Shown in pieces: positions 18,001-27,000 of a DNA stretch of 60,480 nt. This DNA is from Fibrobacteria bacterium. GTDB taxonomy: Bacteria; Fibrobacterota; Fibrobacteria; UBA11236. The stretch lies in assembly GCA_050486505.1 (NCBI GenBank), contig JBJHDK010000007.1:1-60480 (forward strand), read 5' to 3'. A program made the position numbers. Numbering within the stretch: position 1 is the first letter of the stretch; the number at the start of each line of letters is the position of its first letter.

Positions 18001-21000
18001 CTCACAACATCCTGCACCTCGGATTCCAGCTTTCCTATGCCGCCACGCTCGGGATCATCCTGGGGGCCGGCCCGGGATCCGCCCTCGCGAAAAAGGTGCG
18101 TGCCCGTCACCCGCTGTCCTCCGCCTGCGTGCAGATGGCCTTTCTCGGCCTCGTGGTCTTTCTTTTCACCTTTGCCCCCCTGGCCGCCTCCACGCATGCG
18201 GTCACCCCCTGGAGTTTCCTCGGCAACGTGGTCGCCATGCCGATCGGCAGTGCCATGATCACCGCCGGGCTGTGCACGTGGACCCTCGACCTGCTGTCGC
18301 CCCCCGGATTCGATGCTCCCGCCGCTCTCGCGGGGCGAGCGGCGGGTCTTCTCGCCCTTGCCCTGGAAGCCTGCGTCTTCACGCTCGCGCAACTGCCCGG
18401 ATCCCTGCGCGCGCTGCCCGCCCCATCGCCGGTTTGGTTGGCGGCATGGGCGGCGGCAACCCTCGTAATCACCGCCCTCCTTCGCGCGGACAGGTTCCGG
18501 CTTGGCAGCCTCGCCCTGCTGGTGCTGCTGGCGGCCGAGTGGGTCCGCCCCCACGCATCGAAACCCGGGACCGGCGAAGCGCGCGCGACCTTCCTGGCGG
18601 TGGGGCACGGCGACGCCATCGTCGTGGAGCTGCCAGGCCGCACCGTACTCATCGACGCGGGAGACTCGCCCCGCACGGGGAGGCATGTCGTTCTCCCCTA
18701 TCTTCGCGCGCGCGGAATCCGCCGGATCGACGCGATCATCATCACCCACCCGCACCTCGATCACTACGGAGGCGTGTCCGGTCTCGTCGGGCGCATTCCG
18801 ATCGGCATGATCCTCTCGACCGCCGATCCCGATGCGCCCGGAGTGACCTGGCGCTGCCTGCGCGACCTGATCCGCGACCACGACATCCCCTGGATCGAAG
18901 GCCGCGCGGGCATGCGGATCCACGGCTCCCGCTCCGTCTTCCTTCACCTGATCGCTCCGGATGCCGGGATGTCGCGCGCAGGCCTGAACGACCGATCCCT
19001 AGTCGCATTGCTGCGAACACCCGGCGGCGACCTGCTCTTCACAGGGGATCTCGAAGCCCAAGGGCAGCGCGCGCTTGGGGAAACATGGCCCCTGTGGCGG
19101 GGTGCATGGTTGAAGGCCCCGCACCACGGGAGCGACCGCACGACCCTGAGCTGCTTTACGGAGGCCGTCACCCCTCCGGGCAGCGTGATTTCCGCCGGAA
19201 CGCGCCGAGGATTGCCGGGACCGCGCACCCGGACGGAGCTGGAACGGGACGGGGTTCCCCCCGCCCTCACCTCGCGGGACGGGGCCGTCACCTGGGGCTT
19301 CCGGCGCTCCGGGGTGCGAACATCGGCCTTCCTCGGGATGTAAATTTGGGGCCCGCCATGCACGAACATTTTCAGGATCCCCAGGGCGCCGACCCGGAAC
19401 GGCTGCGTCGCGTCTTCGAGCGCACCGAGGTGAGGCGCGCACCCATCACCGGCATCGTCGAGGGCTATCACACCCTGCCCTTTTTACTCGTCGGTCCCGA
19501 TCACGGGGACGATGAGGCCGATCCCTCCGATGCCGGGGGCGCGGCGCGGGGAAGCGTGCTGCTCACGGGCAAGATCTCGGTGAGCCCGAAGCTGGTGATT
19601 CCGGTTTCGGCCGTGGCGGAACGTTTCGCCGATGCCTTTCCCGAAGCCGAGCCCTTCATGGACCGCGCGCTGACGGGGCGGGTCTTCGCCTTCGCGACCG
19701 GTCGAGGCAAGCACCTGCGCGTGCGCAACGAGCACCTGAACGTGGAGACCTTCGCCGACTCCGACGCGCTCGTGCTGGAGCGCGTGCTCGACGATCTCGA
19801 TCGCGGCGAAATCATCGACCACGCGGTGATCTGGTGCCCCGAGCCCCGCCTGTACCCGGTCAGCCTTGAGAAATTCATTCTCTCCGTGCTCGACCGCGAA
19901 CTGCGGTAGCACTCCCCTGCATGGGATGACGCGACCCCTCCGGAGGGCGGGCCGCGCGGATCCCTCCGAATTCCCCGGCATCGCGGATTTTACGAACGTT
20001 CGAATTTTACGAACGCTTTTTTTCCGGAACCGCAACCCGGGCGGCCGTCGCGGCGGTATGATGCATGAATCACCGGACGCCGCATGCCCAAACCCCCTCC
20101 GACATCCCGCCCCCTGCGCCCCGACGTTTTTCGTTTCCTCGACGCACGGGAGTTTCTGCGCCGGGCCTACGATGCCGAAAAGGCCGTGAACCCGGACTTC
20201 TCGCACCGAGCCATCGCGCGCAGGATGAAGGCGCGCTCCTCGAGCTTTTTCAGGGACGTGATCGACGGGCGCATCCGCATCGGGTCATCCCGCGCGGCTG
20301 GCTTCGCGCGGCTCTTCGGGCTGAACCGCACCGAAGCGGAGTATTTCACCCGGCTCGTGCCCTACACCGAGGCGGAGGACGAATCCGAACGCGCGGCCTT
20401 GCTTGAGCGGCTCCTGGAAGTCGCCCCCGCGGGAAACCGCACCTATCTGGGCGCCTTGCAGATGGAATATTTCCGCAAATGGCAATACGCCGCTGTGCGC
20501 GAATTGCTCGCCCTCGGGGATTTCGGCGAGGAGCCGCAAGCTCTCGGCTCCCTTCTCGACCCGCCCCTGACGGCGCATGAGACGGCGGAGTCGTTGCGCC
20601 TCTTGCAGCGACTGAAGCTGATCAGGCGCAACGCGCGCGGACGGCTCGAAAAATCGGACAGGATCGTGAGTTCGGGGCCGGCGCATCCCGAACGGGTTCG
20701 CCCGGCGCTTCGCGACAACCTGCAACTTGCCCTGCGTGCCCTCGATGTTCACCCACCGAAAGCACGCCCCTTCTCCTACCTCACCTTGAGCCTTTCGGAG
20801 AAATCCCTCGAACAGATCCGCGAGCGCCTGCGCGGACTGCGCGGCGAAATTCTCGACATCGTCGGCCGCGACGACTCGGTCGACCGGCTCTACCAGCTCA
20901 ACCTGCAGCTCTTTCCCCTGTCTCGGCCCGTGCCGCGCCGGAGGACGGCATGAGCCGCGCCGCCCGCGCATGGAGCCTCGCGTTGGTGCTTTGCAGCGCC

Positions 21001-24000: not shown

Positions 24001-27000
24001 GCCGTCCAGCCCGCGCCTCGCCCCGCGGTTCCGGTGAACGGAGGGATCCTCACCGACACGGTCGCGACCTTTTTCTGGACGCCCGTCACCGGCGCAGTAC
24101 GCTACCACCTGCAGATCGCGACCGATTCCATGTTCAGCACGGCCTCGTTACGCTACAACGACTCACTGTTCTTCACCCACTACCTGTATGTTGCCGGCCT
24201 GGAAGCCGGCAACACCCAATACTGGCGCGTCAGGGCGATCACCCTCCATGGCAGAACGGACTGGTCCGCGACGTGGAGCTACACCACGCCGAACCCGTCA
24301 CAGGAACCTCCGGTTCCCGATCCCGTTTCGAAGCCCGTCGCACCCGTCAACCTCACCGCGACACTGGCCGACACCGAGGGCGGCAAGGCCACAGTGATCC
24401 TGGGCTGGGACTTGCCCGTGCCCATCGGAAAGGCTCCCGGCTCCGGAACCTTTGTGCTGAGAAGCCCCGGCGACGGCATGTGCCACGCTCCCGGATCGCA
24501 GACCTCCTGCGCCATCAGCGGCCTGGACTGGGGCGTGGCGTACACCTTCTCCGCCGTCTCCAGCAACCCGCTTGGCCTTGGCGACACATCGGCCGCCATC
24601 GTCTTCACCCCGATTCCCTCTCCCCCGGCATTGGTGGGACCGCAAGGCGGCGCAGTGGGTTCACCGGTGACCTTTGTCTGGCACTCCGTGGCGGGGGCCG
24701 TCCGTTACCGCATGCAGGTTGCGACCGACACCCTCTTCCTCCCCCAAAACCTTCTTGTCGAGGACACCATCCCTTCCGAACGGATCTGGAGCACCCAGAA
24801 CCTGCCGCAAGCCACAACGCTCGCCTGGAGGGTACGCGCCGAGTTTGCGGGAGGCGTCACCGCGTGGTCTCCCGCCTTGAGCTTCGGCACTTCGGGACAT
24901 CAGGTTGCCGCGCTGCAAGCACCCTCCCTGATCTTGCCCGTTCAGGGCGCCGTGAACATTTCTCCCTACCCCCCTCCGATGTTCATCTGGAATTCCGTAA
25001 GCGACGCAACAGGCTATCATCTGCAGGTTGCCCTCGACACCGGTTTCACATCCCTTGTCGTGAATGATTCCGTGCTGCACGATACGAACCGGACCGTCGG
25101 GGAGGTGGGATACCTCGCATCCTATTACTGGCGCGTTCGTGCATTGAATCCTGCCGGGACAAGCGCCTGGTCGGAGGTTCGCAACTTCAGCACCAGCGAC
25201 AACATGCCGCCCGATTCGATCGCTCCCTTCCCGGCGGGTCCGCCAGGCGCCCCCACCATCATGAGCGCTGTGGTTGCCTCCGCACCCGGTGCGGCAACCG
25301 CGTCGGTCACCGTCACATGGAGCCCGCCCGCGGACACGGTCACGGGGACCTTCGTTTCCGCCGCCCCCTCCGGTTCCTGTTACGCGCCATCGCAGCAAAC
25401 GAGCTGCACCCTGCCCGGCCTGACATGGGGCGTGGAATATTCCATGCGCGCAATTGCCGCCAACGCATTCGGGACGGGAGATACTTCCGCGGTGTATTTG
25501 TTCACACCCGTGCCCCAAGAATGATCCGAAGTGATGAAGCGGAGGAAACCATGCACATGACAAGACACCTCATACTCGCAGGCTTCGCAAGCCTCGCCCT
25601 GTCAGCCTGCCAGGTGGGAGACCCTATCAACGAGGGCGGCGAGGCGACCCGGGGCGACACCCTGACGCCCCCCGACACCCTTGGGACCCCGTGGGTTCCC
25701 CCCGTCTTCTCCGGAACATCGGCGACGCTCGTCGCCTCCCACGACGCCCTGATCTGGGGCTCGACGCCCCACGGGTCAAGCCCCGGAACACACGCAGACA
25801 AGAACGCCGGGAAAAACGACCGGCTCGAAGTCGGTGTTTACGACATGAAAACCGCCATGCGCAGCCTGATCCGCTTCGACATCCCCCCCGGAATCTCCGG
25901 CGAAGACATCGAGCATGCCATGCTGCGCATCACGTCCTACGCTTGGTTCGCCAAGCACGTGCGGCCCGACTCGGTGCAAATCAACGTGTATCGCGTTCTG
26001 GAATCCTGGAAAGAAGGTTCCGGCACAGGCTTTGCGGGACAACCCAACTCCGCCGCCACCAACGGCGCCTCCGGCCTGGAGCGCTACTGGGGAACAGCCT
26101 GGAGCCAAGAGCTTATGGGCCTCAACGACGTGGATGCGTCCCAGGTCGCCCATGCCGGCACCGCAAGGCCGCGCAACTTCATCGGCCACTGGGACTTCCC
26201 GCTCACCGGACTCGTGCGTTCCTGGGCCGACGATCCCGCCGCGAATTTCGGAGTGCTCTTGGCCGGAAGCATCCCCGTCCACAATGACCTGACGGAAGAT
26301 TATCCACAGTTTCATTCCAGGGATGCCGCGGTATCGGACTCTCTCAAGCCCCTGCTTCTGATCGTACTGAAGACGCCTTCCGACACGACGGAAACCGACA
26401 CTGTTCCCGTCATTCCACCGGCGCCGAACGCTCCCGCAAACGGCGCCACGGACACGCTGTTCACGACATCGGCGGAATAGAAACCACACCAAACGGGGGG
26501 AGAGGCCCCGTTTCCCCCCCGAGGCGACAAGGGGAGGGAATGAACGGGGGCCCTGAAGGGCTCCCGTGTCATTTCCGGGATTTCGCAACGCGAGCCGTCA
26601 GATTTTTTTCACCAGTACACGCGAGTTGCGCACCGCGTTCCACGCCTTCTTCCGATCGGGCGGCAACGAGGAGACGGGCGCCTCGCGGAAGCCCAGCCGC
26701 ATGAAGAAGTCGCTCGTCTGAGTCGTCAGCAGGAACACCTTCCTGATCCCCGTCTTGCGCGCGCGCTGGATCAGGTAGTTGGCGAGCTTGCCGCCGGTTC
26801 CGCGGTTCGCATAGGCGGGATCGACCACCAGCGCCAACAGTTCCGCCGCGCCCGCGCCGATCGGCTTGAGAGCGGCGCAACCGTGCAGCACGTCGTCCAC
26901 CTTGTAGACCGTGTAGAACTCGAGATCGCGCGCAATGTCCTCCGCCGTCCTCTGGATGAGGACGCCCTCATCGACATAAGGCTGCATGATGCGCAGAATC

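Follow-up and report, generated by a model that had tools for sequence, protein, structure and literature searches.

The window, that is, the whole 60,480-nt stretch of contig JBJHDK010000007.1 from a Fibrobacteria bacterium (assembly GCA_050486505.1) that was analysed, contains two consecutive cassettes, each composed of a repeated upstream element, a TIGR02147/DUF4423 gene and a lipoprotein gene, with a third lipoprotein gene behind the second cassette. The features are as follows (model cut-offs: TIGR02147, 50 bits; PF14394 DUF4423, 30 bits).

19991..20015, + strand: operator-like element 1, three CGAACG half-sites (forward, reverse, forward)
20084..20953, + strand: TIGR02147/DUF4423 gene 1, 289 aa (TIGR02147 218.9 bits, PF14394 102.6 bits); predicted structure with an XRE-type helix-turn-helix (HTH, ~18-102), a winged helix (~120-200) and a hood-like C-terminal domain (~201-279)
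20950..22287, + strand: partner lipoprotein gene 1, 445 aa, its ATG overlapping the regulator 1 stop (ATGA, 4 nt); signal peptide, Cys21, Gly-rich tether motif GGGTEGEG, CarboxypepD_reg domains and C-terminal DNRLRE/CBM96
22363..22386, + strand: operator-like element 2, three CAAACG half-sites arranged as in element 1
22466..23332, + strand: TIGR02147/DUF4423 gene 2, 288 aa (TIGR02147 220.4 bits, PF14394 97.4 bits)
23329..25524, + strand: partner lipoprotein gene 2, 731 aa, ATGA overlap (4 nt) with regulator 2; signal peptide, lipobox LAAC, motif GGGGTDVG, CarboxypepD_reg, then Ig/fn3-like repeats
25557..26480, + strand: third lipoprotein gene, ~307 aa; lipobox LSAC and a DNRLRE/CBM96 domain

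Element 1 consists of a 12-bp palindrome followed by the third CGAACG copy and a T run, and ends 68 nt ahead of the ATG of regulator 1. Element 2 lies 76 nt behind the stop codon of lipoprotein 1 and ends 79 nt ahead of the ATG of regulator 2, whose product is 53% identical to that of gene 1. The third lipoprotein gene starts 33 nt after lipoprotein 2 and is possibly co-transcribed with cassette 2; its product shares 40% identity with the C-terminal half of lipoprotein 1 and gave no match with the profile of the tether motif.

A profile search of the whole genome returned eight TIGR02147 genes, all above the cut-off, on contigs C32, C3 (two), C7 (two), C2, C16 and C17, and two of the eight regulator/lipoprotein pairs are those of the window. 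In a scripted scan of the whole genome, the stop codon of every one of these genes was overlapped by the ATG of a co-directional downstream ORF; the overlap measures 8 nt in the C17 pair and 4 nt in the other seven. This reproduces the arrangement given in the preliminary description, eight DUF4423 genes each overlapping a lipoprotein gene by 4 or 8 nt. To gauge the chance level, genes were called crudely from GC3; among 879 pairs of neighbours in the same direction, 99 (11%) permit a start with a 4-nt overlap. Because they are paralogues, the eight pairs are not independent events; the regulators share merely 23-53% pairwise identity, and the overlapping junction has therefore been retained through deep divergence. 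Regulators and partners show parallel relatedness in C7a/C7b and C2/C16, indicating that the cassettes duplicate as units, and the genes around the eight cassettes are unrelated housekeeping genes.

The same pairing of a regulator with a downstream lipoprotein was found in 123 of 126 loci from 46 genomes and 12 families of the phylum, in a sample biased towards the best-scoring loci of each genome, and the ATGA junction was present in 67 of 121 loci. In an unbiased census of one complete genome, 37 of the 39 family copies were paired with a lipoprotein gene, and one of the two unpaired copies stands divergent beside an operon with a motif lipoprotein. The family was present in 112 of 121 sampled genomes of the phylum and in none of 14 control genomes. 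The earlier statement that each regulator switches one lipoprotein is too narrow for some relatives, in which one regulator is followed by two motif lipoproteins. A pairing this close to strictly 1:1, with a single special class of lipoprotein, is tighter than is usual for a regulator and its target, and may hint at a further unrecognised dependency.

All eight partners (220, 345, 422, 731, 445, 498, 449 and 771 aa) begin with a basic n-region and a hydrophobic core followed by a Cys, with LSG, FSA, LSG, LAA, LSG, LSA, LGA and PYG as the residues before it. The lipobox-type signal peptides attributed to them earlier were thus recovered in all eight, as assigned by eye and a heuristic, and we infer that these lipoproteins are placed at the cell surface. 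That the partners usually start with a CarboxypepD_reg domain was true of only half of them: PF13620 scored above its cut-off in the C7a, C7b, C32 and C17 partners, whereas the C3a partner gave weak Ig-like matches only and the C3b, C2 and C16 partners matched neither PF13620 nor an Ig-like domain. The blastp links reported among the partners were reproduced in part. The partners carry beta-sandwich, carbohydrate-binding, fn3, Kelch or pectate-lyase parts.

The partners share the motif C-x(2-10)-[VIL]-A-G-[GTS]-x-[ST]-[ED]-[TV]-x-N. When its profile was run on the 21,491 ORFs of the genome, seven matches were obtained, every one a TIGR02147 partner. An N-terminal model of lipoprotein 1 (tether pLDDT 58-64, beta-sandwich starting at residue 39) predicts that the motif sits in a flexible tether behind the lipid-anchor Cys. 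In Bacteroidetes, a sister phylum, surface lipoproteins carry a lipoprotein export signal (LES; PMC5080379), which is likewise short, conserved, rich in acidic residues and located shortly after the Cys that anchors the lipid. The partner motif also lies in a flexible tether, on proteins with carbohydrate-related domains. It differs from the LES in its greater length, its Gly-rich composition and its larger distance from the Cys, any role in sorting is putative, and in this genome it is confined to TIGR02147 partners rather than general to lipoproteins.

An AlphaFold2 model of the regulator built from 146 sequences (pLDDT 90.8, pTM 0.71) comprises three domains. Residues 18-102 match XRE-type HTH structures (3pxp, Z 8.3, rmsd 3.1 over 82 residues; HigA 2ict, Z 8.2; DdrO 6jq1, Z 7.6, rmsd 2.6 over 73; P22 c2, Z 6.5), although Z scores of 7-8 fall in the range that the tool labels common, and Foldseek gave HigA probabilities of 0.98-0.99, yet with weak E-values (0.1-0.4). 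At the sequence level, lambda CI (E 0.017) and HigA were the best matches of the family profile in the PDB, 12 of the 14 listed matches being XRE HTH proteins; HTH_31 and HTH_3 matched 32 and 22 of the 146 members (best E 1.6e-6), at a significant level in some of them, and the language-model neighbours of the family are HTH_3/HTH_26 clusters. HTH Pfam models gave no match with the two window proteins, even at E up to 10. The HigA-like XRE helix-turn-helix proposed earlier is confirmed by the model and by the HTH_31 and HTH_3 matches of relatives. Residues ~120-200 match winged helices (Z 7.7-6.5, rmsd 2.4-3.5, ~70 residues), including CmtR 2jsc (Z 7.7, rmsd 2.4 over 72), PadR 8ioi (Z 7.7), and MarR, ArsR, HxlR and MecI at about Z 7, whereas sequence matches were at noise level (MarR_2 in 2 of 146, E 0.15; TrmB in 3 of 146). 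A winged helix is thus supported, but not the MarR-like character ascribed to it, since ArsR, PadR, HxlR and MecI score equally.

Beyond the two domains described earlier, the model contains a third, C-terminal one, in which the near-invariant family residues R228, F277 and P278 fall. Its residues 201-279 superpose on the hood of HetR (4ynl_B, with PatS hexapeptide: Z 7.2, rmsd 2.4, 76 of 76 residues; 4hri_B: Z 6.5). A match to 4g6q, a functionally uncharacterised winged-helix protein, spans both this region and the winged helix (148 residues aligned), and the modelled domain may simply be a dimerisation module.

The 12-mer palindromes of elements 1 and 2 each occur only once in the 2.4-Mb genome, and one more cluster of CGAACG half-sites was found, on contig C51. 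The core of element 1 is identical at 23 of 23 positions in the orthologue L033, where the remainder of the 200 nt upstream shows 38% identity, and element 2 at 21 of 24 in the orthologue L038, against 35% for the remaining upstream region. CGAACG and CAAACG differ by a symmetric G/A change between the paralogous cassettes, and each orthologue retains its own version. In a consensus scan both elements were also terminator-like (stems of 6 and 8 pairs, each with a T run behind it), and element 2, given its distance from the lipoprotein 1 stop, could therefore merely terminate that transcript. We regard both as candidate operators, probably of the TIGR02147 proteins, although another factor may bind them.

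Operator-like footprints were found in three of the eight cassettes of this genome: besides those of the window, the C17 group retains GCTCTG-N7-AGAGC plus TTTCAGAGCA. No conserved repeated element was found upstream of the other five (C3a, C3b, C2, C16 and C32), and the conserved block of the C2 group is a terminator-like hairpin 20-30 nt ahead of the ATG. Among orthogroups of other genera with at least three members, five of six possess conserved, distinct repeats: TGTAGAC twice, 21 bp apart; GTGTTC twice, 11-12 bp apart; CGTTGT-N8-ACAACG; GGTTAC..GTAAAC; and CATGTTC in forward, reverse and forward orientation. The direct repeats, one or two helical turns apart, cannot form RNA hairpins. At p<=0.05, the repeat statistic singled out 25 upstream regions and 5 coding controls, out of 118 each; the excess is modest, and several of the 25 are ordinary terminator hairpins. 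Helix 3 of the HTH is invariant inside each orthogroup and different between orthogroups; between the CGAACG and CAAACG groups, the residue immediately before helix 3 changes (R/K versus G), as does one in the wing (L versus Y). Because relatives share traits by descent, the helix-3 differences are consistent with the operator reading rather than proof of it. In genome G086, a partnerless regulator stands divergent, ~300 bp from an operon holding a motif lipoprotein, and the spacer contains CGTTGT-N6-ACAACG. The half-sites and this divergent arrangement fit a local DNA-binding regulator.

Taking together the order and overlap of the genes, the conservation of the upstream elements, the partner motif and the fold as predicted, we propose as the probable explanation, albeit one held with moderate confidence, that TIGR02147/DUF4423 proteins are cassette-specific, self-regulating transcription factors. 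Each would recognise specific DNA sequences and consist of an XRE-type HTH, a winged helix and a C-terminal domain whose probable role is dimerisation, ligand binding or both. Its gene would come first in the cassette, translationally coupled to and presumably co-transcribed with that of an exported lipoprotein, in which a conserved tether motif and a CarboxypepD_reg beta-sandwich precede a C-terminal part that varies and is mostly related to carbohydrates. By binding the repeated half-sites just upstream of its own gene, the regulator, acting as a repressor or an activator, would make the cassette autoregulated, and divergence of recognition helix and half-site among paralogues would allow separate control of each of the 8 to 70 cassettes in a genome. 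The "dedicated DNA-binding regulators" of the preliminary description are partly supported, in fold and in the conserved, cassette-specific half-sites, the latter for three of eight cassettes, while the regulation itself is a proposal. If it is true, a family of unknown function that marks a phylum would consist of switches, each for its own lipoprotein gene.

It is unlikely that the protein instead acts after transcription or on the precursor, as a pre-lipoprotein partner or targeting factor or through attenuation at a leader hairpin, the elements being terminators or attenuators. Translational coupling implies co-production, as in jointly acting proteins, and exceptions to the pairing with one lipoprotein class are few. 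Hairpins with T runs after them can form in the window and C17-group elements, and the C2-group hairpin lies immediately ahead of the ATG. However, HTH and winged helix are both classic DNA-binding folds, several orthogroups have direct repeats that allow no hairpin, the extra first half-site, which makes the loop-less palindrome, has no role in a terminator, and the G086 arrangement preserves the association without coupling. Equally improbable is a DNA-binding protein with its main targets elsewhere, in which case the two genes would simply have been inherited as a convenient unit of co-expression, with no direct control at the locus. The limited number of footprints and the cluster on C51 would suit such a protein, but each full window element occurs once in the genome, the pairing is retained at 23-53% paralogue identity and across 12 families, and cassettes duplicate as units.

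The hood-like domain could also bind a peptide with the partner tether motif, like HetR/PatS or the enterococcal pheromone regulators, so that lipoprotein export or processing feeds back on transcription, possibly across cassettes; we consider this slightly less probable still. HetR, which works with PatS/PatX peptides in filamentous cyanobacteria, comprises a DNA-binding domain (1-98), a flap (99-216) and a hood (217-299), and the hood binds a short Gly-containing peptide, whereupon DNA is released (PMC4649674). The family protein is similarly built from three domains over ~290-300 residues (~299 in HetR), the DNA-binding part first and the C-terminal 76-79 residues on the hood, with near-invariant residues in that domain, and the motif is in a predicted flexible tether confined to the partners. 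In contrast, the hood alone aligns to full-length HetR, at a Z score inside the tool's "common arrangement" range; HetR is absent among the PDB profile matches at E<=10, arguing against a sequence relation; the same region matches 4g6q jointly with the winged helix; and the first two domains of the family protein are an XRE HTH and a winged helix where HetR has its DNA-binding domain and flap. A gene for an RGSGR-type peptide is absent, and the candidate peptide belongs to an exported lipoprotein; the motif, behind the lipid-anchor Cys, would therefore be outside the cytoplasm after export, with no import or processing route known, and, being common to all paralogues, it confers no cassette specificity.

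In many type II toxin-antitoxin modules, the HTH gene comes first with a 4-nt overlap. This order and overlap, and the HigA-like N-terminal domain, recall an antitoxin that neutralises a harmful product of the overlapping gene and represses the operon, as in a toxin-antitoxin or immunity pair. Such a pair is very improbable here: the partners are not RelE/HigB-type toxins but exported lipoproteins, 220-771 aa long, the regulators had no match in PADLOC and PHROG searches, the cassettes lie amid housekeeping genes, and the family, spread vertically, occurs almost throughout the phylum.

As cassette-specific transcription factors, these proteins would combine features of several known systems. 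They share the N-terminal five-helix HTH fold (Z 8.3-6.5) with the XRE proteins lambda CI, P22 c2, DdrO and HigA, and, like many of these, are encoded first in a small operon and may autoregulate. Unlike them, they add a winged helix and a third domain, have no partner domain of the peptidase, toxin or TPR kind, and are paired with a lipoprotein gene; the window proteins fall below any HTH Pfam model. MarR, ArsR-SmtB, PadR, HxlR and MecI-BlaI repressors usually control an adjacent gene locally. Their fold recurs in residues ~120-200, but as the middle domain of a larger protein, with no single family favoured. Polysaccharide utilisation loci of Bacteroidetes are many paralogous loci of surface glycan-binding or -degrading lipoproteins, each with a dedicated regulator. 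The cassettes are likewise numerous, paralogous and provided with their own regulator apiece; in contrast to those loci, they consist of two or three genes without a SusC/SusD pair, and their HTH regulator, a small protein of the cytoplasm, has no sensor domain of any known type.

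Two tandem two-gene units lie on the forward strand of the window, each consisting of a regulator gene of the TIGR02147 (DUF4423) family and a downstream gene for a partner lipoprotein (together termed a cassette), and in both units an ATGA sequence joins the stop codon of the regulator with the ATG of its partner. The features of this region are as follows.

19991-20015: element 1, operator-like DNA with CGAACG half-sites, 68 nt before regulator 1
20084-20953, +: regulator 1, 289 aa; TIGR02147 218.9 bits, PF14394 102.6 bits
20950-22287, +: partner lipoprotein 1, 445 aa; signal peptide, lipobox Cys, CarboxypepD_reg, then DNRLRE/CBM96
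22363-22386: element 2, operator-like DNA with CAAACG half-sites, 79 nt before regulator 2
22466-23332, +: regulator 2, 288 aa; TIGR02147 220.4 bits, PF14394 97.4 bits
23329-25524, +: partner lipoprotein 2, 731 aa; signal peptide, lipobox Cys, CarboxypepD_reg, then Ig/fn3-like repeats
25557-26480, +: third lipoprotein gene, 33 nt after lipoprotein 2; lipobox LSAC, DNRLRE/CBM96 domain

Both regulators are full-length family members, covering positions 2-271 of the 272 in the TIGR02147 profile (cut-offs, 50 bits for TIGR02147 and 30 bits for PF14394). The third lipoprotein shares 40% identity with the C-terminal half of lipoprotein 1 and has neither a regulator of its own nor the tether motif, a conserved Gly-rich stretch behind the lipid-anchor Cys of the partners. 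The only Rfam match across the window was a tRNA at 51340-51423, with none in or near the cassettes.

A genome-wide profile search of the assembly (2.40 Mb, 125 contigs) recovered eight TIGR02147 genes, all of them above the cut-off. Each overlaps a co-directional lipoprotein gene downstream; the overlap is 4 nt in seven pairs and 8 nt in one, exactly as the preliminary description had reported. By crude gene calls, a 4-nt overlap is possible in 99 of the 879 co-directional neighbour pairs of this genome (11%). The eight pairs are paralogues rather than independent events; with the regulators only 23-53% identical to one another, the overlap junction has evidently been maintained. Relatedness runs in parallel in regulators and partners, the two window cassettes being closest to each other and those on contigs C2 and C16 likewise, so cassettes duplicate as units. 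Each cassette stands alone among unrelated housekeeping genes, including those for inositol monophosphatase, dUTPase, NfeD/FloA, IMPDH, ferritin, an HldE-like protein and PriA, and comparison of these flanking genes led us to reject a conserved third cassette gene. PADLOC gave no match for the cassettes, and PHROGs matches were limited to Ig-like tail proteins, for lipoprotein 2; on these results and the flanking genes, a prophage or defence-island origin was rejected. At all eight junctions a Shine-Dalgarno-like purine-rich sequence (GGAGG, GGAG or AAGG) lies 6-10 nt 5' of the lipoprotein ATG, within the 3' coding end of the regulator (20935-20953 and 23314-23332 in the window), and such a sequence is absent before the ATG of most of the eight regulator genes. 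This difference suggests that one mRNA would yield little regulator and much lipoprotein. Two ORFs directly behind the lipoprotein gene on contig C32 may extend that cassette: one of 294 aa with a Peptidase_S74 (endosialidase chaperone) domain (L121:2159-3040, minus strand) and one for a Reprolysin-like metallopeptidase (L121:309-1676, minus strand).

The family-model search detected TIGR02147 in 112 of the 121 genomes sampled from the phylum, representing 43 of 46 genera, and in none of 14 control genomes. Copy numbers were 2 (G036), 3 (G034), 3 (G040) and 11 (G044) in the genus of the window, and 36 (G043), 39 (G086), 40 (G016), 41 (G027), 54 (G085) and 70 (G102) in other genomes. Pairing was assessed in a locus sample of 120 loci from 45 other genomes in 12 families, all within the phylum, which is biased because the best-scoring matches per genome were taken. 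After removal of L060 (truncated match) and L007 (below the full-length filter, though with a lipoprotein partner), 118 loci and the eight of this genome made up the count. A lipoprotein was encoded downstream in 123 of these 126 loci, 121 recognized by a relaxed heuristic and two (L053 and L094) by eye; L070, L073 and L089 lacked one. The genes overlapped by exactly 4 nt in 67 of the 121 loci; in the others the junction lay between a gap of 21 nt and an overlap of 56 nt, a spread that arises partly because start codons were picked heuristically. An unbiased census was provided by the 39 copies in the single-contig genome G086, in which 37 have a lipoprotein gene directly downstream. L160 has none. 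Behind L161 there is just a doubtful ORF of 119 aa, and an operon lying divergently from L161, at a distance of about 300 bp, encodes a secreted protein of 785 aa and a tether-motif lipoprotein of 548 aa, the sole divergent arrangement seen (L152/L161, G086:C1:2894001-2901600). The same genome carries a 24-kb one-strand array of four TIGR02147-headed cassettes (L153 and L154, G086:C1:2402001-2426000), two of which consist of one regulator followed by two tether-motif lipoproteins of about 530-810 aa.

The partners of this genome are 220-771 aa long, and a basic n-region, a hydrophobic core and a lipobox Cys were recognized in all eight by eye and by heuristic. All 76 partners that were aligned have this Cys. 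In several other families of the phylum, N, Q, D, R, E or K precedes it (for example ..LINC, ..FWQC and ..LLRC; L041, L045, L051, L061, L064, L066, L069, L072, L075, L078-L081 and others), an unusual residue for a lipobox, which makes the lipid modification of such partners uncertain. The partners had been said usually to start with a CarboxypepD_reg-like domain; this holds above the PF13620 cut-off of 32.3 bits for four of eight (63, 45.3, 36.1 and 43.4 bits), the other four falling below it, and a profile of the partner N-terminus retrieves seven of the eight. C-terminal parts vary, with a pectate-lyase domain in one Fibrobacter-like partner and Kelch repeats in the partner on contig C17.

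A short way behind the Cys, the partners share the tether motif C-x(2-10)-[VIL]-A-G-[GTS]-x-[ST]-[ED]-[TV]-x-N, followed by the first strands of a beta-sandwich (majority consensus, C.....AG....TGN....G......G.PA..A.V). Two loose regular expressions match 104 of 121 partners, and the 17 others mostly retain a G-G-[ST]-[ED]-[TV] core. A combined lipobox-plus-motif expression proved too loose, returning 12 of 204 candidate lipoproteins of this genome, of which six were partners, and a profile search was used instead. Among 21,491 ORFs of this genome, the motif profile found seven at E<0.05, every one a partner (next E, 0.51); the C2 partner escaped it. Applied to G086, a profile built on the N-terminal 115 residues gave 29 matches, 27 of them N-terminal. 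By coordinate comparison, 22 of the 27 abut a TIGR02147 gene, four belong to TIGR02147-headed clusters, on the strand of the regulator but farther downstream, with two cassettes having two such lipoproteins each, and one is the divergent case. When the first 115 residues of lipoprotein 1 were modelled with AlphaFold (pLDDT 80.3), the motif fell in a low-confidence tether (pLDDT 58-64, dropping under 50 at residues 32-34) that links the signal-peptide helix to the beta-sandwich, which starts at residue 39. Conservation of a linear motif within a flexible tether suggests that some machinery recognises it; by analogy with the lipoprotein export signal of Bacteroidetes (PMC5080379), this machinery may serve lipoprotein sorting. 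The partner-specific motif is a lead to a possible lipoprotein sorting or processing signal in the phylum.

The fold of the regulators was predicted with AlphaFold2 from 146 sequences (pLDDT 90.8, pTM 0.71, against a pLDDT of 77 in the earlier model) of a family comprising 7,426 clusters at 50% identity with E<=0.001. The model gives residues 18-102, with local pLDDT of 91-98, a five-helix lambda-repressor-like fold. Aligned with VIA-align against 48,161 chains, in which Z below 8 can reflect a common arrangement, this part resembles the XRE-type HTH domains of 3pxp (Z 8.3, rmsd 3.1 over 82 residues), HigA 2ict (Z 8.2), DdrO (Z 7.6, rmsd 2.6 over 73) and P22 c2 (Z 6.5). Residues about 120-200 resemble the winged helices of CmtR (Z 7.7, rmsd 2.4 over 72) and PadR (Z 7.7), with Z near 7 each for MarR, ArsR, HxlR and MecI, and residues 118-279 align over 148 residues with 4g6q, a protein of unknown function (Z 7.2). 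The HigA/XRE-like HTH followed by a winged helix in the preliminary description therefore stands, while "MarR-like" is better replaced by "winged helix", as ArsR, PadR and HxlR score equally. Foldseek gave HigA probabilities of 0.98-0.99, yet with weak E-values (0.14 and above); its MarR rows had rmsd of 16-18 A at probabilities of 0.4-0.6, and MarR_2 matched 2 of 146 family members at E 0.15, which is noise-level sequence support. XRE proteins made up 12 of 14 matches of the family profile to the PDB (lambda CI, E 0.017; HigA, E 0.1). HTH_31 matched 32 and HTH_3 22 of the 146 relatives (best E 1.6e-6), and regulators 1 and 2 themselves had no match of HTH_3/HTH_31 type at E<=10. Neighbours in the Atlas belong to HTH_3/HTH_26 clusters, which occur most often in Bdellovibrionota and Pseudomonadota.

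In elements 1 and 2 the half-sites run forward, reverse and forward, forming a 12-bp palindrome plus a third copy, and each palindrome occurs once in the genome. The elements are identical at 23 of 23 and 21 of 24 positions in orthologues from two other genomes of the genus, against 38% and 35% identity in the remainder of the 200-nt upstream regions. CGAACG and CAAACG differ by a symmetric change between the window paralogues, and each orthologue retains its own version. The C17 cassette and two orthologues share an inverted repeat with an additional copy (identity 26/32 and 22/32, versus 35-37% for the rest). Conserved repeats of their own were found in five of six orthogroups of at least three members from Fibrobacter-like genomes: two TGTAGAC copies 21 bp apart; two GTGTTC copies 11-12 bp apart, plus others; CGTTGT-N8-ACAACG; GGTTAC..GTAAAC; and CATGTTC forward, reverse and forward, laid out as in the window. 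Sequences of the sixth orthogroup were too alike for judging repeats; the regulators of the L001-L006 group are 97-99% identical, leaving that group too uniform for footprinting. The shared spacer of about 300 bp at the divergent G086 locus contains CGTTGT-N6-ACAACG. Helix 3 of the HTH is constant inside each orthogroup and different between orthogroups. Two differences separate the CGAACG from the CAAACG group, R/K versus G immediately ahead of helix 3 and L versus Y in the wing. This co-variation is suggestive of a match between regulator and site, though relatives share traits by descent. Upstream of the L008-L030 group, a strongly conserved block, GGGATGGGATTGGGTGTTCCC, lies right after a terminator hairpin and ends in one GTGTTC half-site.

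We consider it probable, with moderate confidence, that the family comprises cassette-specific DNA-binding regulators that act on repeated half-sites upstream of their own genes and control the bicistronic unit; the regulatory interpretation of the preliminary description is thus supported in part, its observation of pairing in full. A candidate -10-like box aligned by eye lies about 30-35 nt before the ATG, placing the elements, at about 70-80 nt, upstream of the promoter, which weakly suggests sites of the activator type; a sigma-70 promoter scan of 19300-26900 returned 0 sites. Both window elements are terminator-like in a consensus scan, and element 2 could end the transcript of the first cassette; the terminator scan showed no enrichment (7 found, 6.6 expected). 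Helically spaced direct repeats, a palindrome without a loop and an element that moves with the regulator rather than with the upstream gene favour predicted DNA sites, and a post-transcriptional or precursor-binding role of the regulator is considered unlikely. Upstream alignments revealed no convincing conserved repeat for five of the eight cassettes of this genome (C3a, C3b, C2, C16 and C32), and the repeat statistic was modest, with 25 of 118 upstream regions against 5 of 118 controls, the 25 including plain terminators. That the proteins bind DNA mainly at distant targets is nonetheless judged improbable.

Residues 201-279 match the hood, the C-terminal domain of HetR, over 76 of 76 residues (4ynl_B, Z 7.2, rmsd 2.4), which raises the idea of a peptide-sensing regulator like HetR/PatS. 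When HetR is aligned to its full length (4hri_B, Z 6.5), however, just this segment of the regulator matches, the N-terminal domains being instead an XRE HTH and a winged helix; HetR was absent from the PDB profile matches at E<=10, and no HetR family was among the 25 most frequent Pfam families of the 146 members at E<=10. Such a regulator is accordingly rated quite unlikely. It is very doubtful that a self-signalling network operates, in which the hood-like domain would sense the tether peptide (A-G-G-[ST]-[ED]-T-x-N), on the unexported precursor or as a released fragment, and export or turnover would feed back on the regulator's own cassette and on others. As the motif is shared by the partners, such feedback would also reach the other 7 to 70 cassettes, and, if real, would cause surface lipoproteins to be displayed in a coordinated way or to the exclusion of one another, by a HetR/PatS-like logic outside cyanobacteria. 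The HigA resemblance of the HTH recalls type II toxin-antitoxin systems, but the adjacent gene encodes a lipoprotein of 220-771 aa in all eight cases and no HigB/RelE-type toxin, and PADLOC found no defence family; the nature of the partner makes a toxin-antitoxin-like pair extremely improbable. Cassette-specific regulators remain the reading we prefer.

A full-text search on both family names found no functional study; the one paper it retrieved merely names Bd3700, in a Bdellovibrio proteome table of proteins raised during growth in prey. In passages of the Fibrobacter succinogenes genome report (PMC3079729), how transcription of cellulase and fibre-degrading genes is controlled is left unanswered, with few recognisable regulators nearby, and excerpts of an envelope proteome study (PMC6851124) list four detected CarboxypepD_reg lipoproteins. 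Local HTH autoregulators paired with a target are already known as a kind of system. Three features appear to be new: the architecture of three domains, the strict pairing of regulators with one class of lipoproteins that has a tether motif of its own, and cassette numbers that have grown to dozens. With eight copies here and up to 70 in a relative, TIGR02147/DUF4423 ranks among the largest paralogous families of the phylum. If its members are cassette-specific regulators, the phylum would possess dozens of unrecognised transcription factors, each with a predicted operator and a defined target, some targets being enzymes, as in the pectate-lyase partner.

Two minor observations concern DNA outside the cassettes and shorter relatives of the regulators. 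A second cluster of three CGAACG/CGTTCG half-sites lies on contig C51 of this genome (about 3017-3045), outside any cassette. Short ORFs of about 100-130 aa (for example G002:C3:191398-191724, G002:C33:51857-52180, G016:C11:49417-49734 and L060 in G044) align with TIGR02147 solely through its N-terminal HTH portion (positions 1 to about 109 of the profile), and may be stand-alone HTH genes or gene remnants.
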